Shown here: positions 6,592 through 53,729 of the stretch, piece after piece
How the letters are laid out: each line of letters opens with the position of its first letter
Position numbering within the stretch: position 1 is the stretch's first letter
Source of the DNA: Bacillales bacterium UBA4855
Lineage (GTDB): Bacteria > Bacillota_I > Bacilli_A > RFN20 > CAG-826
Reading direction: 5' to 3'
Length of the DNA: 64,000 bases
Assembly: GCA_002399785.1 (NCBI GenBank)
Contig: DHEH01000010.1
Span: forward strand, 68,106 to 132,105
Translations under genes and position numbers: made by a program
Notes under the pieces: model-generated
Seen by the model: the letters and a program-made list of their open reading frames with translations, nothing else
Databases searched by the model: none
Told to the model about the DNA's origin: nothing

Positions 6592-6719
6592 AATTTTTCA
6601 AGTTAAGTAGTGGTGTAGACTAGTTAAAATTTAGTATTTTATAAGTAATAAATTAGTAATTTTGACTTTAAAATAATAAAAAAATAAATATAATATTAAT
6701 AGATAGGAAGACAAAATAT

Positions 6720-8141
6720 ATGAGTAATGATCTTGCAATTAAATTTAGCGATGAAACATACGCCACATACCAAGAAGTTGTAAATAATATGAAAACCCCA
6801 CTTATTGATAATATTTGGGCAAATATCGTTGAACATCGTTCACATTTTAATAAACAACTTAGTTTAAAACACTTAACGGGGGCAAATTTTTCCGTTTGTT
6901 ATACTCCTTACGTAACTAATAAAATAAACGAAGTTGAAAGAAAATTATTAAAATTAACCACTTCTTATTTTCAACTTTCAGCAAAAAATACAGACAAAGA
7001 ATACCAAAAATTAAGTTATATTGATATTTTGAGATCATTAGCTAATAAATATAAGTTAGCTGTTGATAATTCTGTTTTAAATCAAATTGTTACTAACCAA
7101 TTGAGTGTATTACCTCCTAATTTCATGATTTTAAATCGATATTTTAGATGTTTAAAAGAAATTGAAAACAATCCTTTAAGTGAATTAAACGATTCTGTTT
7201 TAGGTAATTTTTATAGTTTCTTAATGGGAACAGAAGAATTAAATGAATTTTATCGAACAACTGAAATCAGTGATATGGGAAGTAGAGTACTTGTTGGAAA
7301 AGTATATTTAGGTATTCCATCAACAGCCATAGGAAATGCAATGGATGATTTATTTAAGTTTATTAACTATTCAACATCAAGTTTATTTGTTAAGGCTGCT
7401 GCGAGTTTATATTACATGTATTATATAAAGCCTTTCGAAACATATAGTGAAGATTTGTCCATTTTATTATTTAAAAAAATAATTGGTTTTAATGATATTG
7501 GATCTGTTGCTTCTACTATTAATTTTGAATCTTTATTATTAAAAAGGGAAGAATTCGAAAAAAGTTTAATTGATTCTCAAAAAACTTTTGATTTAACTTA
7601 CTTTATTTTATATGTTGCTAATAAGACTTCTTCTTTAATTGATGAAGCGTTAAATAACGTTAATCAGGCAAGAAATAGCGTTATCAGTCAAGAAATGTAT
7701 CAAAAAGAAGAAGAAAAACCAACTATTGATCCAGATTTTAGTTATAAAGAAGAATCGAAAAAAGAAGAAACACTTTCACCAAAAGAGGATTCTTTACAAG
7801 AAAATCTAACCCAATATAAAACTCCAGATACAACTTCTTCTGTTAGTTATACTCAAAATATTGCAATTAGCAATGTTCCAAGCGGATTAAGTGAAGAAGA
7901 CGCTAATCGTCTAGAAAAACATTTAATCGAAATGAATCCTGCATTAAGCAGAGCACAAGCGCACTTTTATGCGCGTCACTGTACACTTGGAATGTCTTAT
8001 ACTATTTCACAATTTAAGAAAAGTTTAGGATGTGCCTACGAAACTGCAAGAAGTAGTATGGACCATCTTGTGTTTTTAGGGTATTATAAAAAAGATTCTT
8101 TGAGAAATAAATTTATTTATACACCAGTAAAGAAAAATTAA
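6720..8141 (+). CDS. Fic-fold-like protein with degenerate active-site motif and C-terminal winged-helix domain
   Basis: 473 aa. ...AAASLYYMYYIKPFETYSEDLSI aligns to the Fic core (hhhhIHPFxDGNGR) with the catalytic residues replaced. Low-complexity linker. C-terminal wHTH-like segment (ISQFKKSLGCAYETARSSMDHLVFLGYYKK). Confidence 0.4.
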   Translation: MSNDLAIKFSDETYATYQEVVNNMKTPLIDNIWANIVEHRSHFNKQLSLKHLTGANFSVCYTPYVTNKINEVERKLLKLTTSYFQLSAKNTDKEYQKLSYIDILRSLANKYKLAVDNSVLNQIVTNQLSVLPPNFMILNRYFRCLKEIENNPLSELNDSVLGNFYSFLMGTEELNEFYRTTEISDMGSRVLVGKVYLGIPSTAIGNAMDDLFKFINYSTSSLFVKAAASLYYMYYIKPFETYSEDLSILLFKKIIGFNDIGSVASTINFESLLLKREEFEKSLIDSQKTFDLTYFILYVANKTSSLIDEALNNVNQARNSVISQEMYQKEEEKPTIDPDFSYKEESKKEETLSPKEDSLQENLTQYKTPDTTSSVSYTQNIAISNVPSGLSEEDANRLEKHLIEMNPALSRAQAHFYARHCTLGMSYTISQFKKSLGCAYETARSSMDHLVFLGYYKKDSLRNKFIYTPVKKN

Positions 8142-10691: not shown

Positions 10692-13205
<2,514 letters not shown>

Positions 13206-13286
13206 TTATTTAGTTAATTATTAGTAGAATAATAGGAGAACGTCGTTGATGCTCTCCTATTAGTATTTAGAAAGGAGCATTCTAAA

Positions 13287-14453
13287 ATGGCTCAATCAAA
13301 AAGAGATTATTATGAGGTGCTTGGTATTGACAAAAGCGCTTCACAAGACGATATAAAGAAAGCGTATAGATCACTTGCAAAGAAGTATCATCCAGACAAT
13401 AAAGAAACTGGTGATGCCGAAAAATTTAAAGAAGCAACTGAAGCTTATAGTGTTTTAAGCGATGATAGTAAACGTAAAACTTACGATCAATTTGGTGCGG
13501 CAGCTTTCGATCAAACTGCTGGTGGTCAAAATCCATTCGCTGGTAGCGGATTTGATGGTTTTAACTTCAATTCCGATAGCGGTGATTTCGGGAACTTAAA
13601 CGATTTATTTAGACAAATGTTTGGTGGAGCTGGTTTCGGAGGTAGTTCTTCAAGTTACAGTCGTAACAGCCGTGGTGGCGCAAACCGTGGCGAAGACACA
13701 TTAATGAGAATCCGAATCAATTTTATGGATGCAATTAATGGAAAAACAGTCTCTATTCCGCTAACTTACGATGAAAAATGCACAGATTGTAATGGCACTG
13801 GAGCAAAAAATGGTACTGAATTTGAAACTTGCAGTACCTGTGGTGGTCATGGAAGAGTAATTTCTCAACAAAGAACAATTTTTGGCATAATGCAACAAGA
13901 AACTGTATGTCCAGAATGTGGAGGAACAGGGAAAAAGATTAAGACTAAGTGTCCAACCTGCAATGGTGCTGGTTACTTTCATGTCAAAAAGAATGTCGAC
14001 GTCACAATTCCAGCTGGAATAAATGATGGTCAACAAATTAGATTGCAAGGCAAAGGTGAGCGCGGAAGTAATGGTGGTCCTAACGGAGATTTATACATCG
14101 AAATTGTCGTTCAAAACAATACATCATTTGTAAGAAAATCAAACGATATTTATATTGATATGGACGTCGATTTTGTTTCTTGTTGTTTGGGAGATGAATT
14201 AACAGTTCCAACTGTATATGGTGATGTTGAATTAAAGATTCCTGCTGGCACTCAATCAGGTCAAACATTTAGATTAAAAAACAAGGGTGTTAAGGATGTT
14301 CGTGGATCAACTTATGGCGATGAATACATAAAAATAAACGTAAAAATCCCAACATATATTAACGAAAAACAAAAGAAGGCACTTGAAGATTATAAAGCTG
14401 CAAGTGACAAAGACTCTTTCAAAGATAAATTTAAAAGAGCTTTTAAAAAATAG
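13287..14453 (+). CDS. dnaJ: Chaperone DnaJ
   Basis: J domain with HPD (YHPDN), G/F-rich region, four CxxCxGxG zinc-finger repeats. Confidence 0.97.
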
Positions 14454-14457
14454 CGAG

Positions 14458-14488
14458 AAATGCACTAAAAATTGGTGCATTTTTTGTT
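14458..14488 (+). terminator. Rho-independent terminator after dnaJ
   Basis: AAATGCAC-N9-GTGCATTTTTTG hairpin plus T-run. Confidence 0.75.
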
Positions 14489-14545
14489 ATAATAGATTAA
14501 CATAAGTATTATTAATATACTGAAAACGGAAGCAGAGGATTTATT

Positions 14546-14989
14546 ATGCCAAAATGTAAAAACTGTGGTGAAAATATTACTAAATTTGATAAAGAAATTT
14601 GTCCATATTGTGGATGCAAACATCCTTTAGATGAAGAAAGCGCTGAAACATGTGATGTTACTCAAACTATAGAAACAATGGAGAATACTGATCCAGATAT
14701 TTCTTATGAAGTTCATAAAAAGAGTATTACGTCGATTCTAGGCTTGTTTTTAGGCATTGCTGGAGCTGATGCTTTCTATCTTGGTTTTATAAAAGAAGGT
14801 ATTATTCGTTGTGTTTTATCAGTTACCGGATTAGGTTTAGCTTTTATTTTATTCTTTTTCGCTTTTCATTTATCAGTAGGATTATCAATTAGTTTTGCTT
14901 GCATGACAATTTATTTAATTTCAGTTATTGTTGGTTTAATTCTTATTTTTGTAAGAAAAAAAGATAAAAACGGAGTCTATTTAAGATAA
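14546..14989 (+). CDS. Zinc-ribbon / TM2-domain membrane protein
   Basis: N-terminal CxxC...CxxC ribbon (CKNCG...CPYCGC), then two hydrophobic helices with a TM2-like GxAGADAFYLG motif. Confidence 0.55.
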   Translation: MPKCKNCGENITKFDKEICPYCGCKHPLDEESAETCDVTQTIETMENTDPDISYEVHKKSITSILGLFLGIAGADAFYLGFIKEGIIRCVLSVTGLGLAFILFFFAFHLSVGLSISFACMTIYLISVIVGLILIFVRKKDKNGVYLR

Positions 14990-15718: not shown

Positions 15719-16480
15719 ATGGGTGAATTATTTAAAGTATTAAAACAACATAGAGATACCAAGTTTATCAACAAATCTTCTGAACTTGAGTTTTTTTATA
15801 AAAATAGATTTTTGTTAAAAATGAATCAAATGGGTAGTAAATTATATGATTCTAGCGACTTATTTGACATTATTAAGGCTAATATTATTATAAAAGCTCT
15901 AAAAAATAAGGACGATATAGATCAAATTATTCATGAAGAATTAATTAATCATGGAAATTTAGGAGATCCATCCATTAAAGAGAATATTTCTGAAAAATTA
16001 CTCGATTTACCATGCATTTTCTTTAATACTTACAAAGTTTATATTCCGTTTTTCAATCAACCAACAAATATTGTTTATAGTAGTGATTTTGAAAAATTAC
16101 AGGAAGAGCCATATAACTCGATTGATAAAAATTTTGTTCCTTTTACGGTCAATCCATTCGAAATTTATAATTCAAATCTTTTTGATTCGACTTTTACCGA
16201 ACTGATTAGGATTGATGAAGATTTAACTTCGGTAGCTTTTTATGATTATTCGTTTAATACTTTGTTTTTTATTAATAAACAAGGCAGTTTGGATGCCGCC
16301 ATATATTTATTTGATAGACATATGAAACATCCAAGTAGGTCGAATGTTGTTGATAGATTAAGGCCGATTGTTAGTGCATATTACGACAATCGTTTAAACG
16401 ATTTTGTTAATCTCATGTTTAGTAACGATTTAATAAGTTATAAATTATATAGAAAGATTTGTAAGGTGAAAAAATTATGA
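15719..16480 (+). CDS. Hypothetical protein
   Basis: 253 aa, no recognisable motif; tightly packed between rsmE and mtaB, with 1-nt and 4-nt junctions. Confidence 0.4.
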   Translation: MGELFKVLKQHRDTKFINKSSELEFFYKNRFLLKMNQMGSKLYDSSDLFDIIKANIIIKALKNKDDIDQIIHEELINHGNLGDPSIKENISEKLLDLPCIFFNTYKVYIPFFNQPTNIVYSSDFEKLQEEPYNSIDKNFVPFTVNPFEIYNSNLFDSTFTELIRIDEDLTSVAFYDYSFNTLFFINKQGSLDAAIYLFDRHMKHPSRSNVVDRLRPIVSAYYDNRLNDFVNLMFSNDLISYKLYRKICKVKKL

Positions 16481-18090: not shown

Positions 18091-18107
18091 TTTACTTAAA
18101 AAATCTA

Positions 18108-18130
18108 AGAAAGGCGCAAGCCTTTTTTTC
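18108..18130 (+). terminator. Rho-independent terminator after rpmF
   Basis: AAAGGC-GCAA-GCCTTTTTTT. Confidence 0.7.
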
Positions 18131-18249
18131 TTGCTTAAATTCAGTAAAAATAGTGAGAAATTCCAACATAAATTGTGTTCTTATAGTTGAATAAAAAAAT
18201 ACCAATATTATATATTTAACTTGTTATTTTATACATAGGAGGCTCTACA

Positions 18250-18741
18250 ATGAAGCTACAAGCAAAAGCGGAAAAACTTATTAGAAGTATTTGTCAAGAA
18301 TACAATAACGAACCTACACCTTTAATGATGATTTTATCCAAAATTCAAAAAGAATACGGATATATTCCTCTTGAAGTTCAAGAAATTATTAGTGAAGAAA
18401 TTCACATACCAGTGAGTGATATTTATGGTGTTGTTACATTTTACTCATTCTTTTCTTTAAAACCAAAAGGAAAATATGTAATTGGCGTTTGCTTAGGTAC
18501 TGCCTGTTACGTTAAAGGAAGCCAAACAATTATTGATAAATTTAGCGAAATATTAAAGATAAAAGCTGGAGAAACTACTCCTGATGGTTTATTTTCACTC
18601 GATGCTTTAAGATGTATCGGCGCTTGCGGTATTGCTCCTGCTATTAGTATTAATGGAAAAGTTTACCCAAAGGTTACAGCTAATAAAGTTATGAGCATCA
18701 TTGATGAATACAAAAAATTAGTAGCGGAGGATGCACAATAA
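18250..18741 (+). CDS. NuoE-like 2Fe-2S thioredoxin-fold subunit of NADH-dependent [FeFe] hydrogenase (HydC/HndA)
   Basis: 163 aa; Cys pattern C..C...C...C of the NuoE/HoxE family. Confidence 0.8.
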   Translation: MKLQAKAEKLIRSICQEYNNEPTPLMMILSKIQKEYGYIPLEVQEIISEEIHIPVSDIYGVVTFYSFFSLKPKGKYVIGVCLGTACYVKGSQTIIDKFSEILKIKAGETTPDGLFSLDALRCIGACGIAPAISINGKVYPKVTANKVMSIIDEYKKLVAEDAQ

Positions 18742-20618
18742 TGAGTACAACTATCAAAACACCTGAAGAATTAAGAATGAAAACGGAGCATTGCGCTTCA
18801 TGTTTAAACAAAAAATTTCATTGTGAAAACGGAAAAAGAGCTATCGTTGTTTGTGGTGGAACTGGATGTATGTCATTCGATTCTCAAGAAATTAAAGAAA
18901 GATTAAGCAAAATTATTAAAGAAAAAGGCTTAGAAGAAAAAATAAGCGTAAATTTTGTTGAATGCTTTGGTTTTTGTTCGCAAGGTCCTTTTGTAAAGAT
19001 TTTCCCTGAAGATACTTTATATCGTATGGTTCAAGTATCTGATGTCGATAAAATTATCGAACAAGATATTATTGGTGGAAAAGTTGTTGATGAACTTTTA
19101 TACATTGATCCAGTAACTAAAGAACACGTTCAAAAACAAGACGATATCAATTTTTATAAAAAACAAATGAGAATTGCTCTTCATGGTTGCGGAGTTATCA
19201 ATCCTGAAGATATTAACGAGGCTTTAGGTTATCAAGGTTTAGAAGCTTTATTAAAAGTTTTAACAATAATGAAACCTCAAGATGTCATTGATGAAATTTT
19301 GGCGAGCGGATTGAGAGGAAGAGGCGGCGGCGGATTCCCTGCTGGTAGAAAATGGCAATTTGCTCACGACCAAAAGAATGATAATAAATATGTTGTTTGT
19401 AATGGTTATGAAGGAGATCCAGGTGCTTTCATGGATAGATCAATTCTTGAAGGAAACCCACTCGATGTTATTGAAGGTATGATGATTGCAGGATATGCTA
19501 TCGGTGCTAAAAATGGTTATTTCTACGTTAGAGCCGAATATCCAATAGCTGTTAAAAGACTTCGAATTGCAATAAAAGAAATGGAAGACCTTGGCTTACT
19601 AGGTGATAACATCTTAGGAACCAATTTCTCATTTAGAGCTCATATAAGATTAGGAGCAGGTGCTTTCGTTTGTGGCGAAGAAACTGCATTATTAAATTCA
19701 ATTGAAGGTAAACGTGGTATGCCACGTCCAAGACCTCCATTTCCAGCCGTTAAAGGATTATGGGGTAGACCAACCATTATTAATAACGTAGAAACTCTAG
19801 CAAATGTACCTCATATCATTAGAGAAGGAAGTAAAAAATTTGCTAGCATTGGTACTGAAAAATCTAAAGGAACAAAAGTTTTTGCTTTAAGTGGAAAAGT
19901 TAATAATGTTGGCTTAGTCGAAGTTCCAATGGGAACAACATTAAGAGAATTAATTTTTGATATCGGTGGAGGAATTCCAAACAATAAAGCCTTTAAAGCT
20001 ATTCAAACTGGTGGCCCATCCGGCGGCTGTTTAACTATGGCTGATTTAAATACACCAATTGATTACGATAACTTAATTGCTGCTGGTTCTATGATGGGAT
20101 CAGGCGGAGCTATCGTTATGGATGAAGATAACTGTATGGTTGATGTCGCAAAATTCTATATGGAATTTATTTGTGATGAATCATGCGGAAAATGTTCTCC
20201 ATGCAGAATCAGTACAAGAAGAATGCTTGAAATGTTAACTGATATTACCGAAGGAAGAGGAACCGAAGATACTTTATACCAACTTCAATATTTAGCTGAA
20301 GTTGTTAAGGGTGGCTCTTTATGTGGATTAGGTAAAACTTCAGCTAACCCAATTCTTTCAACCATGAAAAAATTTCCTTAAGAATACCATCAACACGTTG
20401 TTGATAAAAAATGTGCAGCACATGTTTGTAAGAATTTAATTTCTTTCCATATTGATGCTTATAAATGTAAAAAATGCTCGCTCTGTGCAAGAAATTGTCC
20501 AGTTAATGCTATTACCGGTGAAATAGGTAAGGTTCCTTACGTTATTGATTCCGATAAATGTATTAAGTGTAGATTATGCTTCAGTAACTGCAAATTTGGC
20601 GCAGTCATAAAAGATTAA
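18741..20618 (+). pseudogene. NuoF-like flavoprotein subunit of [FeFe] hydrogenase (HydB/HndC), interrupted by an in-frame TAA at 20379-20381
   Basis: NuoF core (GLRGRGGGGFPAG FMN/NAD site, CGKCSPCR). After the TAA the same frame continues with no ATG or RBS for 78 codons. These encode two CxxCxxCxxxCP [4Fe-4S] ferredoxin motifs, the normal C-terminus of HydB. Confidence 0.7.
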
Positions 20619-20631
20619 GGAGGAAACAAAA

Positions 20632-22401
20632 AATGGATAAAATTAATATTAAAATCGAGGGTCTCCCTTATCAAGTAGATGCCGGTTTAACAATTCTTTA
20701 AGCAGCAAAACAATGTGGGTACGATATTCCTTCTCTATGTTCTTATAAAAAAGGTGAGTGTTCATTAGCTTCGTGCCGTGTTTGCCTTGTTGAAGTTAAA
20801 GGTGCTAGAAGTTTAGTTGCTTCTTGTGTTTATCCAGTTAACGAAGGCATGGAAATTATGATTTCTTCTCCAAAAGCAATTGCCGCAAGAAGAACATCTG
20901 TTGAATTATTATTGAGTAATCACAACAAAAATTGTCAACAATGTATTAAAAACGACGAATGTGAATTACTTTATGCTGCTAAGCAAGTTGGTGCACGCGA
21001 AGGAATGTTTGTGGGTTCAAAATCAGAATCCTTTAAAGATGAAATAGCTCCTGGAATTGTAAGAGATACATCAAAATGTATTTTATGCGGACGTTGTGTT
21101 GTTAGATGCAAACAAGCCCACGGAATTTCAATTTTAGGTTTTGAAAAAAGAGGATTTAAAACAATTGTTGGTCCTGCCGGAAATCTTAGTTTTGCAAATT
21201 CACCATGTTTACAATGTGGTCAATGTGTTCTTGTTTGCCCAACTGGTGCTTTAGAAGAACATTCTGAAATTAGTAAAGTCGATCAAGCTTTTAAAAATGG
21301 AAAATATGTCATTGTTCAAACTGCTCCAGCAGTTAGAGCTGCCATTGCTGAAGAATTTGGTGCTAAAATTGGAACTGTTGCCACTGGGAAAATGGTGGCA
21401 GCTCTTCATAGATTAGGTTTTTATAGAGTTTTTGACACCAATTTTGGTGCTGATTTAACCATTATAGAAGAGGCTAACGAACTTCTTAACAGAATTAAAG
21501 GAGAAGAAGCTTTACCTCAAATAACTTCTTGCTCTCCAGGTTGGATTAATTATTGTGAATTCTTTTATCCTCAATTATTACCATATGTTTCAAGTTGCAA
21601 ATCGCCACATGAAATGATGGGAGCTATTATAAAATCATATTTTGCTAAAAAACATAATATTGATCCAAAAGATATATTTGTTGTTTCGATTATGCCATGT
21701 ACAGCGAAAAAATACGAAAAACAAAGACCTCAAAATTCAGTTGATGGACTTCAAGATGTCGATGCAGTCTTAACTACACGTGAATTAGGTCGTTTAATTA
21801 AAAGAAGTGGTATCGTTTGGAATAAATTAAAAGATGAAGAATTCGATCAACATTTACTTGGAGAATATTCAGGTGCTGGCGCAATTTTCGGTGTTACAGG
21901 CGGAGTTATGGAAGCTGCTTTTAGAACTGCTTATTTTGCTTTAGAAGGTAAAGAATATGAAAAAATCAACTTTACTGAAGTAAGAGGTTTAAAAGGTGTT
22001 AGAGAAGCAACTGTTCATATGGGTGGTATGGATGTCAAAGTTGCTATGGCAAGTGGTATGAGTTATGCTAAACCATTGCTTTATCAAATTGATACCGGAA
22101 CATCACCATATACCTTTATCGAAATTATGTTTTGTCCTGGTGGATGTGTTAACGGTGGAAGTCAACCATTCGTTAAAACTGTTTTCTTACCAAATGAAGA
22201 CGACGATATCTTAGAAACTTATGTCCAAAGAGAGCGAATGTCTTATATAGTGAAGACGAAAGACAAGTTATACGTCAATCACACAATAATCCTGATATAC
22301 AAAAATTATATAAAGAGTTCCTTGGTGAGCCATGTGGCGAAAAAGCTCACAAATTACTTCATACAACTTTTGTTAAAGACAGGCAAAGATACAAAGAATA
22401 A
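20632..22401 (+). pseudogene. hydA: [FeFe] hydrogenase catalytic subunit HydA with in-frame TAA at 20698-20700 and a frameshift near 22229-22234
   Basis: RBS AAGGAGG then MDKINIKIEGLPYQVDAGLTIL-TAA-AAKQCGYDIPSLC, where conserved TILEAA is expected. H-cluster motifs are intact (TSCSPGW, MPCTAKK, CPGGCVNGG). The conserved tail RANVLYSEDE...NPDIQKLYKEFLGEP...KAHKLLH reads in the +2 frame after an (AG)3 tract. Confidence 0.7.
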
Positions 22402-22403
22402 AT

Positions 22404-22441
22404 TAATAAATAGAGGGAAATTTAACCCTCTATTTATTTAA
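22404..22441 (+). terminator. Rho-independent terminator after hydA
   Basis: AATAAATAGAGGG-AAATTTAA-CCCTCTATTTATTT. Confidence 0.75.
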
Positions 22442-22486
22442 TGATTTTATCGATATAAACTTATATAATAATAAAAAGGAGTTTTT

Positions 22487-23122
22487 ATGAACTACAATAA
22501 ATTTATTGATAATACTTTATTAAAAGCTGATACTACCAAAGCGGAAATCAAGGCATTATGCGAAGAGTCGAAAAAATTTGATTTCAAATCATGTTGTGTT
22601 AATCCAGATATGATTGGCTGGACAAACGAATGCTTAAAAGGAAGCGATGTTCTCACTTGTGTCGTTATCGGTTTCCCATTAGGAAGCATGACTACAGATG
22701 CTAAAGTTTTTGAAGCGAGCGATGCAATCAAAAAAGGTGCTGATGAAGTTGATATGGTCATTAATATAAGCGAATTAAAAGATCACAACGATAAATATGT
22801 CGAAAACGAAATTCGCGAAATTAAAAAAGCTTGTGGTGATCACACTTTAAAAGTAATTATTGAGTGCTGTTTATTAACAGATGATGAAAAAATTAGAGCT
22901 TGTTTAGCGGCTAAAGCTGCTGGTGCTGATTTTGTAAAAACATCAACTGGATTCTCAAAATGGGGAGCAAAAGTTGAAGATGTTGCTTTAATGCGCAAAA
23001 CTGTTGGTCCAGTTATGGGAGTTAAAGCTGCCGGTGGAGTAAGAACACATGAAGAGATGGTTGAGATGATTGAAGCGGGAGCAACAAGAATCGGAACAAG
23101 TAGTGGCGCTAAATTAATGTAA
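22487..23122 (+). CDS. deoC: Deoxyribose-phosphate aldolase
   Basis: 211 aa; DeoC signature with catalytic Lys (DFVKTSTGF), VIGFPLG. Confidence 0.9.
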
Positions 23123-23262
23123 TTATTCAAAACCAAGTATTTCAAAGTACATGGTTTTTTATATGTTTTTTACTTGTATTTATCGAAGAAATACAATATT
23201 TATTGCTTTGCATTTATATTTATAGTATTATAAGAAAGCGATTTCGGAAGGTGGTGAGAAAA

Positions 23263-23436
23263 ATGTCAAAAGTAGTAATTAGAGACGGTGAAACACTTGA
23301 TGAAGCTTTAAGAAGATTTAAAAGACAAGTCAATAAAGCTGGAACCATCCAAGAATGCCGCAAAAGAGAATGCTTCTATAAGAAAAATCTTAAAAGAAAA
23401 ATGAAATCTGAAGCAGCAAGAAAGAAATATAGATAA
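23263..23436 (+). CDS. rpsU: 30S ribosomal protein S21
   Basis: [23 protein letters not shown]...; start at the internal ATG behind AAGGTGG. Confidence 0.9.
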
Positions 23437-23449
23437 ATTTCAAAAATAA

Positions 23450-23482
23450 AAGGACAATTGTAAAAATTGTTCTTTTTTTATT
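23450..23482 (+). terminator. Rho-independent terminator after rpsU
   Basis: GGACAATTG-TAAAA-ATTGTTC followed by TTTTTTT. Confidence 0.65.
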
Positions 23483-23599
23483 TTTTCTTCTTAATTTTTG
23501 AACTTAATAGACATCTTGTATGTGAAGGGCAAGAAAAATCTAATAATTATCCCCCACCAAAGTTGGATCTTCTTGCCCTGAAACATAAAGGAGTCTTAT

Positions 23600-24790
23600 A
23601 TGTCTTATTTCATCAAACAAATTATGAGTAAAGATTGCGGTTTTTCATGTCTAAAAATGTTGTTAGCAACAAAACAAAAAAATGAAAATTATCTTTTTTT
23701 AGATCAGGATGTCCAAGATAAACCATATTCTTACGAAAAATTAATAAGTATAGCTAAAAATGAAGGTTGCACATTAAAAGCTTATAAAGTTGTCGATAAA
23801 AAAGAGGTTTTTGAATCTAAAAATTTTCCAATAATGGTCACTTTTTCAAATAATAATACACTTCATATGGTTCTTCTTAAGAAAATAAACAAGAAAACAG
23901 TTGAAATAAACGATCCGGCAAAAGGAGAGTTGACCATTACAAGGGAAGAATTTATCGAACGTTTTAATGGTGAATTTCTAGAATGTGAAGAAATTGAAAA
24001 AAGAAAGTATAAAGCAAGAAAATTTCAATATATAAAAACAAAGCATATATGGCTAGCTTTATCTTTAGAACTTTTAAGTTTTGTTTTACTTATCACAGGG
24101 TTATATTTCAGTAGCGAAACAAATATAATTATCCCAATATTATTATTTATAGGTTTTATTTTAACCAGTTTTATATATCGCAAAATTTTAGTTTTAGGAA
24201 TGAAAGATTTCGACAAAAACGTAATTGAACCGTGTTATTTTCGAAGGAAAAAAGATTCAAAATCTACATTATTTAATATGGTTTCGTTCAAAAAAACATA
24301 TTTTGTATTACCTATCGAATTATTATCTAGTTCATTAATTTTAATATTTGGAAGTGTTTTACTTGCTCTTAACAGCATGTTAAATCTTATTAATGTATTA
24401 GTAATAATAATGTGTGAAATATTGTTTTATATCTTATTTAATAAAAAAATAAATGCCAAAAAAGCAAAAATTCAAGAGAAAGAAGAGGTTTTAAGTAAAA
24501 ATAACGATGAAGAAATTACTAAAAAGGCTATGGAAGAGGCGACAAATGAAGTCTATTCAATATCTAATTACTATGACTCCAAAAAATATATTACAGTTTT
24601 TCTTATTTTAATAATGACGCTTTTAAATATGTATATAGTTGATAAAATAAGTTTAAATTTTTTAATATTCCATTTTTTCTTTTATTCTTATTTAGATGAG
24701 TCAATTTCAAAAATAATAGATTTTTTAGATTCGTTCGACGAATACAAATATTATAAATGTCTTTATCTAAATTACTGTAAAGAAGAATAG
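23600..24790 (+). CDS. Peptidase C39 domain fused to an ABC-exporter-type transmembrane domain, lacking a nucleotide-binding domain
   Basis: Catalytic Cys in SKDCGFSCLKML, His in NTLHMVLL, DPAKGE. About 6 predicted TM helices follow. No Walker A/B; the gene ends 64 nt before ybeY. Confidence 0.65.
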   Translation: MSYFIKQIMSKDCGFSCLKMLLATKQKNENYLFLDQDVQDKPYSYEKLISIAKNEGCTLKAYKVVDKKEVFESKNFPIMVTFSNNNTLHMVLLKKINKKTVEINDPAKGELTITREEFIERFNGEFLECEEIEKRKYKARKFQYIKTKHIWLALSLELLSFVLLITGLYFSSETNIIIPILLFIGFILTSFIYRKILVLGMKDFDKNVIEPCYFRRKKDSKSTLFNMVSFKKTYFVLPIELLSSSLILIFGSVLLALNSMLNLINVLVIIMCEILFYILFNKKINAKKAKIQEKEEVLSKNNDEEITKKAMEEATNEVYSISNYYDSKKYITVFLILIMTLLNMYIVDKISLNFLIFHFFFYSYLDESISKIIDFLDSFDEYKYYKCLYLNYCKEE

Positions 24791-24854
24791 TGTATAACAA
24801 ATTACATATTTATTTTTAAATGATTATTCCTAAATATGATATAATTATGAAACG

Positions 24855-25316
24855 ATGGAATTCTCATTCAATAACGAAACAAATAACACTCTGGAAGAAT
24901 ATTCTGAACTTTATGAAAAATTGTTTTTAAAGACCTTAAAAACACTTAATTTAAGTTCTGAATATATTGTTAGTGTTACCATAGTTTCTAAAGAAGAAAT
25001 ACATCGAATTAATCGAGAATATCGACACATAGATCGTCCAACTGATGTAATCAGTTTTGCGTTTCTTGATGACAAAAAAGAAATTGTCAAAGGTGGAGAT
25101 ATTCCAATCGATTTAGGGGAAATTTACATTTGCTATGATGTTGCTGAAGAAAATGCAAAAAAATACGGAAATACACTAAAACGAGAATTATGTTTTCTTA
25201 GTGTACATGGATATTTGCATCTATTAGGATATGATCATATAACAAAAGAAGATGAAACCATTATGTTTGGTCTTCAAGATGTGATACTTCCTCCAAATAA
25301 GGAGATCATTTTATGA
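24855..25316 (+). CDS. ybeY: rRNA maturation endoribonuclease YbeY
   Basis: HGYLHLLGYDH zinc-binding motif. Confidence 0.9.
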   Translation: MEFSFNNETNNTLEEYSELYEKLFLKTLKTLNLSSEYIVSVTIVSKEEIHRINREYRHIDRPTDVISFAFLDDKKEIVKGGDIPIDLGEIYICYDVAEENAKKYGNTLKRELCFLSVHGYLHLLGYDHITKEDETIMFGLQDVILPPNKEIIL

Positions 25317-25711
25317 TTAAAGAAGAATTAATGGCTCAGGCCAAAGAAGCTATGGATTATTCGTATTCACCATACTCAAAATTTAAAGTTGGTGCGGCTT
25401 TATTAACAAAAGATGGAAAAATATTTTTAGGAGCCAATATTGAAAATGCATCATACGGTTTATCGATGTGTGGCGAAAGAAATGCAATATATAATGCTTA
25501 CTGTCATGGTGTCGAATACGATGACATTGAAGCTCTAGCTATCATTGGTGATACAGAAAAACCTGTTTCTCCTTGTGGCGCTTGCAGACAAGTTTTTAGC
25601 GAATTATTACCAAAGAATACAAGAATATACCTTGGCAACTTAGAAGGTGACATAAAAGAAACAACTGTTTCAGAATTGTTACCATATTCATTTTCTGGTG
25701 AAGATTTATAA
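25313..25711 (+). CDS. cdd: Cytidine deaminase
   Basis: CGERNA ... PCGACRQ zinc motifs. Confidence 0.9.
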   Translation: MIKEELMAQAKEAMDYSYSPYSKFKVGAALLTKDGKIFLGANIENASYGLSMCGERNAIYNAYCHGVEYDDIEALAIIGDTEKPVSPCGACRQVFSELLPKNTRIYLGNLEGDIKETTVSELLPYSFSGEDL

Positions 25712-25712
25712 T

Positions 25713-26588
25713 ATGAAGAGCGGATTTGTAAGTATTATTGGCAAACCAAACGTTGGAAAATCAACATTAATTAATGATATTGTTGGTTCAAAAATATCAA
25801 TTGTTACTCCAAAAGGCCAAACAACACGAAATTCAATTACAGGAATCTATAATGATGAAGAATCACAAATAGTGTTTTTTGACACTCCAGGGATTCATAA
25901 GCCTTTCAACGAATTAGGAATAGCTTTAGATAAAATATCTTATAGTACAATTAGGGATTGTGATATTGCCCTATTAGTAGTGGATGCTGGGCGTGAATAC
26001 GATGAGAGTGATGCATTCTTATGCGAAAAATTAAAATTTGATTGCAAACTTATCGTTGTATTTAATAAAATCGACACAACACGTATCGAACTCATTACTT
26101 CAATTAAAGAAAAATATAACACATTATTTCCAGATGCTTTAACATGTGAAATTTGCGCAAAAGATGGATTTGGTGTCACAGATTTAATAAAATTAATTAA
26201 AGAAAATCTAGAAGAAGGTCCTGCTTATTATGATGTTACTCAAATAACCGATCGTGACTTATCATTTAGGGTTCAAGAAATTATTCGTGAAAAATTATTG
26301 ATACTTTTAGATAAAGAAGTACCACACGGTGTTTTAGTTTTGACTGAAAAAATTGCAAAAGAAAGTGGTCGCTTATCAATATATTGCAAAATCATTTGTG
26401 AGAAAGAAAGCCAAAAAGGAATAATAATTGGCAAAGGCGGAAAGATGATTAAAAAGATTGGTACGTATTCCCGTCAAGATATAGAAAAAATGCTAGGTCA
26501 ACATATAAATCTTGAATTAGTGGTGCAAGTAGTTGAAAATTGGCGTAATTCTAGTAGATTTTTAGTAAAAGCAGGTTATAAAATTTAA
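25713..26588 (+). CDS. era: GTPase Era
   Basis: GKPNVGKST, DTPG, NKID; C-terminal KH domain. Start at the ATG 2 nt after the cdd stop. Confidence 0.9.
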   Translation: MKSGFVSIIGKPNVGKSTLINDIVGSKISIVTPKGQTTRNSITGIYNDEESQIVFFDTPGIHKPFNELGIALDKISYSTIRDCDIALLVVDAGREYDESDAFLCEKLKFDCKLIVVFNKIDTTRIELITSIKEKYNTLFPDALTCEICAKDGFGVTDLIKLIKENLEEGPAYYDVTQITDRDLSFRVQEIIREKLLILLDKEVPHGVLVLTEKIAKESGRLSIYCKIICEKESQKGIIIGKGGKMIKKIGTYSRQDIEKMLGQHINLELVVQVVENWRNSSRFLVKAGYKI

Positions 26589-27305
26589 ATGGAACAATTT
26601 GTTGGTTTAATAATTTCAGTCAACAAATATAAAGATAATAATGGCGTTATAAATATCTTAACCGAAAATGGAATAGTTTCTATTTTGGGACGAGGTATTT
26701 ATAAAGATGACAATAAAAATCATATCTTTACTAATAAATTTATTTATGCTAATTTTGATGTTTACAAAGGAAAAGTTGGTGGATATAAATTAAGAACCGC
26801 AAAAATAATCAAATTCTATCCATCCGCTATAGAATCTTACGAATACCTTTTGGCATTAGATTATTTAAGCGAAGTAGTTTACAAAACAATTGACGACGTA
26901 TTAGCTGATGAAGATTTAGATTTTAAAAGCAAGTTATTACATACAGTCATTAAAACATTAGATTACATGATTGAAACAAGAAGAATTTATGCTTCTTTAT
27001 CTTATTTTTCTTCTACATTAATTAAAGAATTAGGGATTAAACCTAATCTAAACAAATTAGAAAATATTGAAAGTCAAACATATTCTTTTTTAAACGGAAG
27101 TATTGTTGCTAATACCAAAAAAGAAAATAACGATATTGTTTTATCAAAAGAAAATATAAATTGTATAAATATGTATTTATGTTGCGATAATATCGATGAA
27201 ATTTTAATCGGTGAAACTAACTCTAAATTTGTTTTTATCTTTTTTAATAGACAAATTGAGAGTTCTTTTTCGATTAAATTAAACTCTTTGAATTTAATCT
27301 TGTAA
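26589..27305 (+). CDS. recO: DNA repair protein RecO
   Basis: 238 aa; position era-recO-glyQS conserved; RecO-like OB N-terminus. Confidence 0.6.
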   Translation: MEQFVGLIISVNKYKDNNGVINILTENGIVSILGRGIYKDDNKNHIFTNKFIYANFDVYKGKVGGYKLRTAKIIKFYPSAIESYEYLLALDYLSEVVYKTIDDVLADEDLDFKSKLLHTVIKTLDYMIETRRIYASLSYFSSTLIKELGIKPNLNKLENIESQTYSFLNGSIVANTKKENNDIVLSKENINCINMYLCCDNIDEILIGETNSKFVFIFFNRQIESSFSIKLNSLNLIL

Positions 27306-27375
27306 GTACACTTATAATAGTTTGACAAAATATAGTTTTGACCTATAATCAAAGAGTATTTGAATGGAGATTTTT

Positions 27376-28755
27376 ATGGAATTTAAAAATAAATTTGAAA
27401 CAGTTGCTACACACCTACAAACAACTGGGTATGTTTTTCAAGGATCACAAATATATGGTGGCCTAAGTAACACTTGGGATTACGGCCCTTTAGGAAGCGA
27501 ATTAAAAAACAACATTAGACAATTATGGCTTAAAAAATATGTTCATGAATCACCTTATAACGTTGCTATTGATTCAGCAATATTGATGAATTCTAGAGTT
27601 TGGCAAGCAACAGGTCATGTCACAACATTCAATGACCCTTTAATTGATTGTAAAGCATGTAAAAGTAGATTTAGAGCTGATGAATTGATCGAGCAACAAT
27701 ATAAAGATGCTGACGTCAACGGAATGAGTCAAGATGACATGAATAATTTTATGCATGACCATAAATTGGTTTGTCCTACTTGTGGAAAAAGTGATTTTAC
27801 AGATATTAGACAATTCAATATGATGTTTAAAACTCACATCGGTGTTACTGATGATAATAAAAGTGAAGTTTATTTAAGACCAGAAACAGCTCAAGGTGTT
27901 TTTGTTAATTTTAAAAATGTTCAAAGATCAACAAGAAAAAAAATACCTTTTGGAATCTGTAATACAGGTAAAGTTTTTAGAAACGAAATTACTCCAGGTA
28001 ATTTTACTTTTAGAACTAGAGAATTTGAACAAATGGAATTAGAATTTTTCTGTAAACCAGGTACCGATTTAGATTGGCAAAAATACTGGAAAGATTTTTC
28101 TTTAAAATTTATCGAAACTTTAGGTATTAAACCAGAAAATTTAAGATATAGAGATCACGAACCAGAAGAATTAGCTTTTTATTCTAAAGCTACTACAGAT
28201 ATTGAGTATAAGTTTAGCTTTGGTTGGGGAGAAATTATGGGTGTCGCTGATCGTACTGATTACGATCTAAATAGACACGCAAAGTTTTCTGGAGAACCTC
28301 TCGATTATTTAGATCCTGATACTAACGAAAAATATGTTCCTTATTGTATCGAACCAAGTATTGGGTTAGATAGAATGTTTTTGATGATTGTAAATGATGC
28401 ATATGATGAAGAAACTTTACCAAATGGAGAAGTGAGAAAAGTAATGCATCTTCAACCATTTTTAGCACCATATAAGGCTGCAATTTTACCTTTAAGTAAA
28501 CAACTTAGTTCACAAGCTGAGAAAATTTATCAAGATTTAGCACCTTATATTACGTTAAGTTACGATGTCACCGGATCAATCGGTAAAAGATACAGAAGAA
28601 ACGATGAAATCGGAACACCATTCTGTGTTACAGTTGATTTTGATACGCAAAATGATAATTGCGTTACAGTTAGAGAAAGAGACTCTATGACACAAGAAAG
28701 GATCAATATCTCCGCATTAAAAGACTATTTAATGGAGAAATGTTTTTATAAATAG
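27376..28755 (+). CDS. glyQS: Glycine--tRNA ligase (dimeric GlyQS type)
   Basis: Class II aaRS motifs; strong similarity pattern to GlyQS (RPETAQG, FRNEI, GLDR). Confidence 0.9.
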
Positions 28756-30614
28756 TGGATATTAAACAATTAACTGAAGATATATTAAAACAAGTAAATA
28801 TTGTAGACATAATTTCTCATTACACCCAAGTTCAAAAAGCAGGAAGAAATTACACATGTCTATGTCCTTTTCATGATGATAAGAAATTGGGGAATTTTTA
28901 CATAAATCCTGACAAACAAATTTTTAAATGTTTTTCTTGCGGAAAAGGTGGAAACGCGATAACTTTCGTTCAATATAGAGAAAATATTTCTTTTATAGAA
29001 GCCTTAAGAAAGGTTTGTGACTTATCGGGCATTAAAGACGACAGATTAACTTCAAACGTTAAAAGAGTCGAAATTCCAACTGAAATTAAAAATATCTATG
29101 ATTGTTTGTCGAATATCAATTCTTTTTATATGACCAGCTTATATCAAAATATTAACGGAAGAAAAGCCTTAGAATATCTAACTCAACGAGGTCTAACTGA
29201 AGAAATCATTAAAAATTTTAATATTGGTTATTCACAAAGTGATGGCAAAAATGTCGTTAAATATTTAAATGATAAAAATTATAGTTTGAAAACAATAGCC
29301 GAAACAGGCATTGTTCGAATAGACGAAACACCATTGAAAGATTTAAATGCAGGTAGAATCACATTTGGAATCACCAACAAAGATAATAAAATTGTTGGTT
29401 TTAGTGCTCGTATTTTTGGTGATATTAAAAGCGATGCTAAATATATAAACACTAAGGAAACTAAACTTTTTAATAAATCCGATATACTATACAACTACTA
29501 TTCTGCCTTAAACGAATCAAGAAGAGTCGGTTATGTATATGTTTTAGAAGGTTTTATGGATGTTATCGCTTGTTATAGAGTAGGTATCAAAAGTGCAGTC
29601 GGTTTGATGGGAACAGCTTTTACAAAACAACAATTGCAAATGCTTAGATTCATGAGATGCGAAATTCGCTTATGTTTAGATTTAGATACTCCTGGGCAAG
29701 ATAATATGTCAAAAATTATTGAAGTGTTAGATGAAAAAGGAATCAAATATAGATTAGTCAATAACAATTCAGGTTTTCATGGAAAAGACAGCGACGAGAT
29801 ATTAAAAAATGATGGCGAAAAGGGTTTATTATCTTTCTTAGATAATTTAATTAGCAAAGGCGAATGGCTTATAAATTATTACGCAAAATCTTTTGATTTA
29901 AGCAGTTTAGATGGAAGAAAAAAGATGTTAAAAGCCTTTATACCAGTTATTTCACAAACTAACAGCCGATTAGATAGAGAAGATTACATTAATAGAATTT
30001 CTAAATTGACGAATTTTAGTATCAAAACAATCCTTGACATGGTAAATAACATGCAAACAAATATCGAAAAAAACGATAATGAAGATTTTGCAAAATGGTA
30101 TAACTCAAATAAATTTGAAAGCAAGAAATTAGATAGATTGCAATTTGCAGAAAGACAAATGATGAGATATATTCTTGAGAATAAGGAAGCTTATGATCAA
30201 TACACAGAGAAGTTGGGATATTTTACTAATAAAGATTATAGACAAATAATTGATGCAATTGATGAATATGTAAACACAGATGTCATCAACCAAAGCAACT
30301 ACTCTTTAACAAATATTATCACATCATTAACATCCAACGAAAATTTAGAACAAAAAACGAAAGAAAAAATAATCGATGATATCACTACGGTAGCTTTAGA
30401 TAAATCGCGGTATTGCCCTCCATATAACGAGAAAAGTTTCGTAAATCTTGTTGAAACAATCAATAACGAAAGAGAACTTAAGAGAAGCAAAGAAGCTTAT
30501 GAGAACTCAATAATTAACCTAAATCCTGAAGAAAAAAATAAACAAACAGTCAATTTTCTAGAATCAATCAAAGAAAATCTAGAGAGAGACAAAATTAAAA
30601 AAGGAGGCAAATGA
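28755..30614 (+). CDS. dnaG: DNA primase
   Basis: Zinc-binding CxxH...CxxC N-terminus, TOPRIM domain (EGFMD), before sigA. Confidence 0.9.
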
Positions 30615-31873
30615 TGGAAAAAGTTAAAAATAAGTGTATTTATAGTAGTAATCAAGTAAATAACTCATCCAAGGAACTTGAAAGCGTAATCAATTCATTA
30701 GATCTAACTGAAAACAATAAAACAAATTTATTAAGTTCATTAATAAACATCGAAGGAAACATAAAGAAAACAAAAACAATAAAATTAACAGAATTAGATG
30801 TTTTATTTTCTAAATGCGGAGTTAATGATAATGATGCAGATGTTTTATTAGAATATCTTACTAATAATGGTTTTATTTGTAATGACGATTCTGGAAATAA
30901 TAATATGTACGATGACGATTCTCAATTTACGCATATGGAAATCGATGATGACGATGACGAAGACGAAACACTAATAGATCCCTACGTTGATGAAACATTT
31001 CCTAAAATTGACAAAGATGTCAAAAATACTAATTCAATTAAGTCTTACCTAAATAATATTTCTTCATATGATTTATTATCAAAAGAAGAAGAAATAGAAT
31101 TAGCAAACAAAATTAAATTAGGTGACGAAAAAGCTAAACAAGAATTATCTGAACATAACTTAAGACTTGTTGTAAGTCTTGCTAAAAATTACATCGGTAG
31201 AGGACTTTCTTTACAAGACTTAATTCAAGAAGGCAATGCTGGTTTGCTTAAAGCAGTAGAAAAGTTCGACATCACCAAGAATTGTCGATTCTCAACTTAT
31301 GCAACATGGCGGATAAATCAATCGCTTTCAGAGGCCGTAAAATCAAAAGGGCACACAATTCATTTACCATCATACATTCTTAAAGCAGTTTCTAAAATAA
31401 ACAAAACAGCAAACGAATTAACTTTAAAATTAAACCACAAACCAACCTATACAGAGATTAGTGAAGCATTAAATTGGGAATTTTCTCCCGAAAAAATAGA
31501 AAGATTCCTGTGGTACGCAACATCGACATCAATAAGATCTACTGATGAAAAAAGAAGTGATAGCGAAAAAAGCGAATCATTAATTGAAGCAATACCCGAT
31601 AATAGTGATTCAATTGAGGATTATCTATCAAATACAGCAAATCACGAAAACGTGAATAAATTACTTAAAGTTCTTAATGAAAGAGAAAAAATTATTATAA
31701 CTGAATATTTCGGTCTAGATGATGACGAAAGCAAAACTCTTGAACAAATAGGGCATGAATTAGGCCTTACAAGAGAAAGAGTTAGACAAATTAAATTTCT
31801 TGCAATTAAAAAAATGTTTGATTCTACCGAAAAAAACAAATTAACAAATTTACATAATCAAATGGAGGATTAA
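30611..31873 (+). CDS. Divergent sigma-70 family paralog (regions 1.2-4 present, altered DNA-contact residues)
   Basis: 420 aa. Regions 2-4 recognisable ([38 protein letters not shown]). Acidic N-terminal insert. Overlaps the dnaG stop (ATGA). Confidence 0.7.
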
Positions 31874-31876
31874 ATT

Positions 31877-33313
31877 ATGAAAAACACAAACAAAGACATT
31901 AAAAAAACAATATTAGATTTAGATGAGGAAAAAACATCAAAAAAGACAAAAAAGGCAACTGATACAAAAAAAGAAAAGTTGGACAAAAAAGAAACGAAAC
32001 CTAAAAAAATAACAACTAAAATTGAAAACGAAGAAAAAAATTCCAAAAATTCGCATTCTTTAATAACAAAAAAAGATATTACAAAATATATTGTCCTTGA
32101 AGAAGTAGATGATGAAGATGAGACTGTAACGGAAAATAGCCTTATTAAACAAGGATTAATTAAACAAACAGAGAAATATTTAAAAAGTCTTGGGTCAGAA
32201 AACGAAGTTGATATGGATGATTATTTTGATTTAACCAAAAATTTAAATGTTGATGATGAGACTATGGATAAAGTCATGGAATATTTTAAAGATTGTGGTT
32301 ACAAAATTAGAGGTGAAAATGTCGATGAAGTCGAAGATGTTGATTTTGATCCAAATTCCATCAACGAGGACGATGATTTATTGGATGAAGATGATGATAT
32401 ATCAGAAGACAGTGACTCTTCTGAAACAATTGCTATTTTAAATAGCATTGATGCTTATGATAGCGATTTTAAGACAAGTGATTCAGTTAAATTATACATG
32501 AAAGATATGCATGATTACGCTTTAATCGATGCTAAAAAAGAAAAAGAACTTGCTGTAAGAATCGCTCATGGTGACCAAGAAGCGAGAGATGAATTAACAA
32601 CAGCAAACTTAAGATTAGTTGTTAATGTTGCTAAACATTATGTTAATCGTGGAATGGCTTTATTAGATTTAATCCAAGAAGGTAATATAGGTTTAATGAA
32701 GGCAGTTAATAAATTCGATCCAACAAAAGGTTTTAAATTTTCTACTTATGCAACTTGGTGGATTAGACAATCTATAACAAGAGCTATTGCTGACCAAGCA
32801 AAAACTATTCGTGTTCCAGTTCATATGGTTGAAACAATAAACAAAATAAATAGAACTAAGAAAGTTTTGACACAAGAACTCGGAAGAGAACCAACCCTTG
32901 AAGAAATTAGCAAAAGATTAGAAGGAAAATATACCCCAGAAAAAATCTTAGAAATATTAAATTATGCTCAAGATCCTGTTTCTACAGATTGCCCAATTGG
33001 AAAAGATGACGACACCCAATTAATGGATTTTATTCAAGATAAAGAAGATGTTTCTCCTGAAGAATATACTAAGCGACAATTAAATATTGAAAACTTAAAT
33101 AAAATTATGCAAGATTTATCAGAAAGAGAGCAAAGAGTTTTATGCTTACGTTATGGTCTCGTTGAAGATGGTAGAGCTAGAACACTTGAAGAAGTTGGTA
33201 AAGAATTTGGTGTTACAAGAGAAAGAGTACGTCAAATTGAAGCGAAAGCCATCAAAAAACTTAGACATAAATCACGTACTAAATTTTTAGACTGCGAATA
33301 TTATTCGAAATAA
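31877..33313 (+). CDS. sigA: RNA polymerase sigma factor SigA (RpoD)
   Basis: Canonical regions 2.x ([38 protein letters not shown]) and 4.2 ([13 protein letters not shown]). Confidence 0.92.
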
Positions 33314-51254: not shown

Positions 51255-51842
51255 CTAACATACCTTAACTACAGTACATTTAAATTGGTAATCCATAATT
51301 TTGTTTAATAATTTAATGTAAAAAGACATCACATCAAAAACAACATCATTAAAGACATGCGCAACTTCTTTTTGTTGAATTCCAGGAATTAAAAAGCGTT
51401 TTTTCTGGATAAAACGAATTTCTTGAATTGCAGCAATATATTCAGAATTGCCAAAATTAGGAATCAAACCTATGTTTAAGCCTTCTTTTAAGCAAACTTC
51501 ATTCTTTACCTTATATATTGGACAAATAATTGCTAAAGGCTGCCATTTATTTGACATTTCAAGAACTATACATAAACCTTTAATAATTGATCCATCTGAA
51601 TTTGCGGCTTTTGCGTATTCATGAATTGAACCCTGACTTAAATTTATGTCATGTGATTTAGAGAAAGAACTAGATAGATTTTCTCGAGCATTTTCCATCC
51701 AAGTTAATTGTGATTGCAATGAACTATTCTTTTCAAAATCAATGACATAAACGGGCTCTTTTAACGAATTTGCATCTTTATCCATAATAAAATACCTAGA
51801 ATAATTTAAACCTTCGTGCACAGAAAATTTAAATTTATTCAT
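51255..51842 (-). CDS. Hypothetical protein with a possible MazF/PemK(Kid)-fold C-terminal domain
   Basis: 195 aa. By-eye alignment to the MazF/PemK pattern: PVYVIDFEKN..., CIVLEMS, LAIICPIYK, AAIQEIRFIQKKRF. No upstream antitoxin ORF. Confidence 0.3.
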   Translation of the reverse strand: MNKFKFSVHEGLNYSRYFIMDKDANSLKEPVYVIDFEKNSSLQSQLTWMENARENLSSSFSKSHDINLSQGSIHEYAKAANSDGSIIKGLCIVLEMSNKWQPLAIICPIYKVKNEVCLKEGLNIGLIPNFGNSEYIAAIQEIRFIQKKRFLIPGIQQKEVAHVFNDVVFDVMSFYIKLLNKIMDYQFKCTVVKVC

Positions 51843-51890
51843 TCCTTTACATACAAGATGTCTATAAAGTCTAAAAATTAAGAAGAAAAT

Positions 51891-52670: not shown

Positions 52671-52682
52671 ATTAAATTAATT

Positions 52683-53708: not shown

Positions 53709-53729
53709 AATGGCAAATCTCTTTAATTC

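Follow-up and report, generated by a model that had tools for sequence, protein, structure and literature searches.

Probable within-species decay of an electron-bifurcating-type [FeFe]-hydrogenase operon in Bacillales bacterium UBA4855

The stretch of DNA analyzed here (hereafter the window) comprises 64,000 nucleotides of Bacillales bacterium UBA4855, an uncultured low-GC bacterium of gut type (contig DHEH01000010.1 of assembly GCA_002399785.1; 29.4% G+C), and carries, at 18.2-22.4 kb, the genes hydC, hydB and hydA. Our comparison of this locus with its counterparts in other genomes leads us to conclude, with high confidence, that it was formerly a trimeric electron-bifurcating-type [FeFe]-hydrogenase operon and is now very probably a pseudogene. 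Nine assemblies that are about 99% identical to each other were treated as one species. Ten distinct loss-of-function events are spread across the three genes in these assemblies, and at least one lesion is found in eight of the nine. The hyd genes of the sister lineages L089/L090/L091 (about 90% identity) and L094/L095 (about 89%) are open, whereas strains of the same species are variously broken. Disrupted alleles are found opposite intact alleles at the syntenic locus, the lesions recur, and purifying selection has been lost against a conserved past. A preliminary description of this DNA had argued for real inactivation and not sequencing error; the recurrence of the lesions in independent assemblies and a pseudogene-type selection signature bear it out.

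The three genes form one transcription unit between the rpmF terminator (18107-18128) and a hairpin at 22405-22438, with one promoter-like site and one terminator in their flanks. The hydC stop and the hydB start overlap at 18741, and hydB and hydA are separated by 14 nucleotides (nt). The features of the unit are as follows (aa, amino acids; FMN, flavin mononucleotide; ORF, open reading frame):

18187..18216, plus strand: promoter-like site TTGAAT-18-TATATT, upstream of hydC and after the rpmF terminator (consensus scan)
18250..18741, plus strand: hydC, NuoE-like [2Fe-2S] subunit, 163 aa, open in this strain (PF01257, 170 bits)
18741..20381, plus strand: 5' part of hydB, NuoF-like FMN/NADH subunit, 546 codons to a premature TAA (ORF list, Pfam)
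20382..20618, plus strand: stranded 3' remnant of hydB, 78 codons, C-terminal 2x[4Fe-4S] ferredoxin domain (Pfam)
20633..20701, plus strand: hydA start and second lesion, the TAA at codon 23 (frame reading, alignment to other loci)
20702..22229, plus strand: body of hydA, codons 24-532, with the remaining N-terminal [2Fe-2S] domain, the F-cluster domains and the H-cluster domain (ORF list, Pfam, NCBIfam)
22228..22401, plus strand: stranded 3' remnant of hydA in the -1 frame, 57 codons, Fe_hyd_SSU-like C-terminal segment (PF02256, 83.5 bits, in the repaired protein)
22405..22438, plus strand: intrinsic terminator hairpin with a 13-bp stem, closing the operon

The site at 18187..18216 is a consensus match only, and promoter-like sites are no more numerous in the region than in shuffled sequence. 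The ribosome-binding site (RBS) of hydC is GGAGG at 18238-18242.

The identity of the operon was established on repaired proteins, in which the stops were read through and the hydA frame was restored. In Pfam, repaired HydB contains thioredoxin-like 2Fe-2S, Complex1_51K, SLBB, NADH_4Fe-4S and two Fer4 domains, and repaired HydA contains Fer2_4, NADH-G_4Fe-4S_3, a Fer4 dicluster, Fe_hyd_lg_C and Fe_hyd_SSU. Repaired HydA matches NCBIfam NF040763 ("NADH-dependent [FeFe] hydrogenase, group A6") with 801.9 bits, over a cut-off of 765 and across profile positions 1-570 of 571. This cut-off is reached only by repaired HydA and by P0001, an intact allele of the same species; as encoded, hydA lies in three pieces. 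Intact alleles of the species align end to end with the cryo-electron microscopy structure of HydABC, 7Q4V (HydB, E = 3e-250; HydA, E = 8e-181), and the intact HydB allele P0136 matches 7q4v_B across residues 33-624. Given the NF040763 and Pfam matches and the end-to-end alignment to 7Q4V, the ancestral operon is predicted to be a standard trimeric bifurcating-type [FeFe]-hydrogenase HydABC, linked to NADH and ferredoxin. In the repaired, continuous frames, the order C-B-A and the domain architecture of all three subunits are those of the electron-bifurcating HydABC enzymes (HydDB group A3, "group A6" in NCBIfam; structures 7Q4V/8A5E, 8A6T and, from Thermotoga maritima, 7P5H). The window genes differ from these by two stops, one frameshift and replacements of invariant residues; the uninterrupted ORFs and invariant cofactor-binding residues of a functional member are not found in the window, and three full-length subunits are impossible as encoded.

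The first lesion lies in hydB, whose frame reads ...STMKKFP and then TAA at 20379-20381. This is codon 547, where GAA has become TAA by a G to T change (E547*). Past the stop, the frame remains open for 78 codons, up to the TAA at 20616-20618, and according to the ORF list these hold no in-frame ATG, GTG or TTG. They encode two Fer4 motifs, at residues 570-592 and 601-621 of the repaired protein, and the stop therefore removes the C-terminal two-cluster ferredoxin domain in this strain. The frames and the Pfam matches here agree with the preliminary description, which had placed this stop correctly and had noticed the two [4Fe-4S] motifs without an ATG behind it. Codon 547 is GAA in L081, L086, L087, L088, L096 and L094, GAT in L089-91 and TAA in L092, L093 and L097.

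The other two lesions lie in hydA, which starts at ATG 20633-20635 behind the RBS AAGGAGG (20617-20623). At codon 23 (20699-20701), GAA has again become TAA by a G to T change (E23*), cutting off the start-proximal 22 codons. This TAA is common to L086, and all other loci have GAA or GAG. The RBS and the in-frame TAA had both been recognized correctly in the preliminary description, but its positions for the start (20632) and the stop (20698-20700) were each one base low; its derivation of the two TAA codons from GAA is right, since intact alleles carry GAA at both sites. The next ATG is codon 73 (20849), which is, as had been described, the start of the largest callable hydA ORF. Re-initiation at M73 would give a product without most of the N-terminal [2Fe-2S] domain. 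The third lesion is a 1-nt deletion, in which an ancestral AAAA has become AAA at 22227-22229, shifting the frame after codon 532. It is common to L086 and L088 and absent from all other loci. The original frame then runs through 70 unrelated codons into the terminator and stops at 22439-22441, and the conserved hydA tail, KRANVLYSEDE...HTTFVKDRQRYKE, ending RQRYKE before its stop, is found in the -1 frame at 22228-22401. The frameshift costs hydA its C-terminal small-subunit-like segment. That the tail is out of frame had been seen before, but the shift had been placed inside the (AG)3 tract at about 22229-22234; the A was lost from the A4 run that adjoins this tract on its 5' side, outside it. 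The ancestral state at the three lesions (GAA, GAA and A4) is kept by L081, which is 99.67% identical to the window, and by both outgroups.

Further alleles were collected from 90%-identity clusters of HydA and HydB, and the operon was aligned from 13 further loci. A protein search with repaired HydA led to P0001, an intact HydA of 589 aa that is 99% identical, whose contig is L081. L081 is collinear with window positions 19203-32401 (43 mismatches and one gap), and 19 of the 44 differences fall within the 3.2 kb of hyd and 25 in the next 10 kb, a larger share in hyd than expected by chance. The lesions found in the nine assemblies of the species are:

Window: hydC open; hydB E547*; hydA E23* and 1-nt deletion at codon 532
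L086: hydC mostly uncovered; hydB open; hydA E23* and 1-nt deletion at codon 532
L088: hydC open; hydB full length; hydA 320-bp deletion (20755-21074) and 1-nt deletion at codon 532
L087: hydC E49* and +1 nt insertion; hydB Q551*; hydA Q549*
L092: hydC 1-nt deletion; hydB 2-nt deletion and E547*; hydA full length
L093: hydC uncovered; hydB E547*; hydA full length
L097: hydC uncovered; hydB E547*; hydA full length
L096: hydC uncovered; hydB Q551*; hydA full length
L081: hydC uncovered; hydB open from codon 155; hydA full length

Each lesion of the window is therefore seen again in at least one other assembly of the species (E547* in L092, L093 and L097, E23* in L086, the deletion in L086 and L088), and these recurrences come from other samples or studies. 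E547* and the codon-532 deletion are combined in all four possible ways: both in the window, only the deletion in L086, only E547* in L092 and neither in L081. Such a mosaic speaks for exchange between strains by recombination, or else for chimerism of the contigs. A syntenic rpmF-hyd-deoC arrangement, with hyd frames open, is found in L094 and, over its covered part, in L081. In relatives, the interruptions are not carried as separate, conserved small ORFs, a case that the preliminary description had raised; they are polymorphic, mixed with strain-specific lesions and set in sequence at a ratio of non-synonymous to synonymous polymorphism (pN/pS) of about 1. An apparent 155-nt insertion in hydB of L089 was rejected as a lesion, being a run of Ns at a scaffold gap whose edge is duplicated.

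These recurrences bear on the idea that the operon is intact in the organism and that errors in the consensus produced both TAA codons and the loss of the A, which we regard as highly improbable. It gains something from the position of the frameshift within a short homopolymer. Moreover, the independent Logan contig L084 (SRR1561996, 55 kb), which is 100% identical to the window across 7.9 kb including four hydB replacements, ends at 20149 inside hydB, 230 nt short of the first TAA, and leaves the lesion sites uncovered. However, the window is part of a 261-kb SPAdes contig (NODE_16 of ENA ERZ724032) with 23.9x coverage, G to T substitutions are atypical of consensus errors, every lesion recurs in other assemblies, and the 19 neighboring genes are without truncation. 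The break of L084 at 20149 could also mean that two hyd alleles coexist in that sample. Besides the end of L084, several points weigh against our reading of the operon as a pseudogene. L086, one of the supporting assemblies, is covered only about 2x; several assemblies share a study of origin, as their adjacent accessions indicate, and their independence may be incomplete; metagenomic contigs can combine different strains, and such chimeras would make the mosaicism look greater than it is; L081 is without a truncating lesion in its covered part, and a functional allele may still segregate; and hydC is intact in the window strain.

Selection on the operon was examined on codon alignments of seven in-group sequences with L089 as outgroup, and the flanks were represented by 19 genes, from grpE to the second sigma factor. 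Within the species, hyd polymorphism comprises 52 non-synonymous and 5 nonsense changes versus 11 synonymous ones, and that of the flanks 36 non-synonymous versus 51 synonymous (odds ratio 7.3 for polymorphic changes in hyd versus flanks, p = 7e-8). Fixed differences from the sister lineage number 35 non-synonymous and 311 synonymous in hyd, versus 423 and 1288 in the flanks, and the contrast between polymorphic and fixed changes in hyd is very strong (Fisher p = 2e-34). The hyd genes were historically more constrained than their neighbors and were under strong purifying selection on the branch that separates the species from its sisters. Non-synonymous diversity is now 1.74% in hyd and 0.27% in the flanks, more than six times higher in hyd (hyd pN/pS about 1.4). 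Since synonymous diversity is the same in both (11/868 sites, 1.27%, in hyd; 51/3244 sites, 1.57%, in the flanks), there is no local hotspot of mutation or error, and random error cannot produce an excess limited to non-synonymous sites.

The mutation spectrum was counted on derived polymorphic sites only, with fixed sites kept apart. In hyd, 51 changes are GC to AT, 11 AT to GC and 6 other, in a region of only 34% G+C; the corresponding counts in the flanks are 28, 53 and 3. The hyd spectrum has the look of unfiltered mutation in an AT-rich genome. All five hyd nonsense mutations are GAA to TAA or CAA to TAA. As a separate observation, of the 68 derived polymorphisms in hyd, 18 are G to T or C to A transversions, versus 4 of 84 in the flanks, an 8-oxoguanine-like signature.

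Replacements were also found at residues judged invariant among 41 HydB and 119 HydA homologues. At positions invariant in 41/41 homologues, window HydB has G74E, D223Y (in CNGDEGDPG), G491S (CRIGT), Q532K (LGQT) and G611R, the last of which lies, like D574Y, in the 3' remnant. Window HydA has D407H and G510S (GGGQP) at positions invariant in 119/119, as well as C500F at a position that is only C or G among homologues. The H-cluster motifs had all been called intact in the preliminary description, and the Cys ligands are indeed retained, but G510S and C500F alter the L3 motif, which reads MFCPGGCVNGGSQP in the window. Other strains have D223N, A250P, G288A, A316E, P396S and S427Y at all-invariant positions of HydB, and S64F and G393S at those of HydA. 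The sole allele without a truncating lesion, L081/P0001, carries D407H (L081:2648-2650; window 21851-21853), where Asp is found in 119/119 homologues and in both sister lineages; this allele may not be fully functional despite its lack of truncation.

Two further explanations would leave a working product. Programmed recoding, by TAA read-through and a -1 frameshift, or a variant code could still yield full-length, active HydB and HydA, and both TAA codons do replace Glu and are followed by G, while a -1 shift near CAAAG could in principle restore the frame. We find this hardly credible. Strains of the species differ at the lesion sites, and the sister lineages lack the lesions; other strains carry different lesions, among them the 320-bp deletion. 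Replacements affect invariant residues of the catalytic site, and pN/pS is about 1. No slippery heptamer of the form X XXY YYZ is seen on direct reading of 22223-22231, and no Rfam family matches the window, frameshift and read-through elements included. An alternative genetic code or a suppressor tRNA was rejected, since TAA, TGA and TAG are used normally, ending 36, 8 and 7 of the 51 long ORFs of the window, and the window holds no tRNA gene.

A functional remodelling, in which HydC, truncated HydB and a HydA core initiated at M73 would form a new, smaller enzyme (e.g., a non-bifurcating hydrogenase or an NADH:acceptor oxidoreductase), is very unlikely in our view. In its favor, hydC is intact here, truncated HydB retains the FMN and N3-cluster domains, and a 530-codon ORF with the H-cluster Cys ligands remains. 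Yet D223Y hits the FMN-site motif and G510S the GGGQP motif, both invariant, and the HydA ORF is without the Fe_hyd_SSU-like C-terminal segment that 119/119 homologues keep. Moreover, L087 and L092 carry disrupted hydC genes, the truncated products vary from strain to strain, and non-synonymous changes are unconstrained along the whole operon. Under the pseudogene reading, no active hydrogenase would be made from this locus.

As to timing, constraint on H2 evolution via this enzyme probably ceased around, or shortly before, the common ancestor of the strains sampled, because the replacements fixed in the species are few, with none clearly inactivating, and hyd is about as diverse at non-synonymous as at synonymous sites. 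Lesions would then have accumulated neutrally and have been shuffled between strains by homologous recombination, as suggested by E547* and the frameshift being combined in every possible way. We considered and rejected an initial hit within the operon that all strains would share: compared with both sister lineages, the species has only nine fixed replacements, none of which is clearly inactivating. One of these, HydB G384S, affects a position invariant in 41/41 HydB homologues; complex I NuoF proteins have Ser at this position. The relaxation probably originated outside the three structural genes, or followed from a niche change. Candidate causes are loss of the maturases HydE, HydF and HydG, redundancy with a second hydrogenase or another electron sink, a niche shift and positive selection for loss. 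Profile scans of the window proteins did not find hydE, hydF or hydG in the 64 kb.

Positive selection would mean that null alleles are favored and not merely tolerated: loss of the bifurcating hydrogenase would be adaptive in the niche, for example by redirecting reductant away from H2, and knock-outs would arise repeatedly and spread by homologous recombination. This would account for the lesions in eight of nine assemblies, for their mosaicism and for a pN/pS slightly above 1, but we consider it unlikely. In a variant of it, the operon may be decaying as a late consequence of a single prior event at another genomic site, for example maturase loss.

The surroundings of the operon are in good order, as had been described: all other genes of the window are intact. 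Downstream, synteny between the species and its sister L094 (GCA_964416025.1) breaks directly after the hyd operon, and in L094 an ECF-type sigma factor and a 494-aa serpin (12579-14563, downstream of deoC) replace the rpsU-C39-ybeY block. In the window, the C39 gene (23600-24790) encodes a 396-aa protein with an N-terminal Peptidase_C39 domain, a long hydrophobic C-terminal part and no recognizable ABC ATPase domain; it is the only gene between rpsU and ybeY, and every strain has it conserved. Behind dnaG lie two sigma-70-family genes in tandem (30614-31873 and 31877-33313). Unusually high non-synonymous divergence from the sister lineage was observed in the first of them (98 non-synonymous to 107 synonymous changes), in recO (26589-27305; 62:60) and in the C39-domain gene (48:91), and the neighbors of these three are at roughly 1:5 to 1:8. 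Five ORFs of 211-489 aa have no Pfam or NCBIfam match (6672-8141 and 15719-16480 on the plus strand; 49714-50979, 51255-51890 and 52683-53729 on the minus strand), and three of them flank an ABC permease gene at 51891-52676. A metagenome-assembled genome of the same species, GCA_020633815.1, bears the NCBI name "Erysipelotrichaceae bacterium". A scan of GTDB representative genomes gave, among the matches listed, relatives at no more than 74% identity and none of this species, and a literature search on the sample and assembly accessions, on this organism and on decay of this operon found no relevant paper.

Loss of HydABC has a precedent in host-associated Endomicrobiaceae, where Endomicrobiellum lineages H and I have lost the ancestral group A3 HydABC and other NADH/ferredoxin-reoxidizing enzymes during genome erosion (PMC11257099). 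In both cases a family-ancestral group A3 HydABC is dispensable and is lost in derived lineages; there, however, the genes are absent between lineages, whereas here the loss is in progress within one species, with intact-looking and broken alleles at about 99% identity. Salmonella Typhi and Paratyphi A, which accumulated pseudogenes in parallel after niche restriction, are similar in that the same functions were inactivated independently in close lineages, mostly by nonsense mutations and small frameshifts (PMC2658671). In contrast to Salmonella, within the 64-kb window the hyd operon alone is affected and the other genes are intact, and this looks like loss of a single function and not genome-wide decay. 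The process, gene loss, is already known; what is notable is that the states before and after it, together with many independent null alleles, are cleanly visible.

To conclude, where H2 production in gut and rumen communities is predicted from genomes, hydA homologues are counted, and a call of a 527-aa "hydrogenase" at this locus would score the species as an H2 producer; the species almost certainly makes no enzyme from this locus. The operon may serve as a natural example of gene loss in progress, with strong constraint between lineages followed by what would be neutral decay within a species. Its many independent null alleles, and one allele that may survive intact, could help to address at what point and for what reason fermenters abandon electron-bifurcating H2 evolution.

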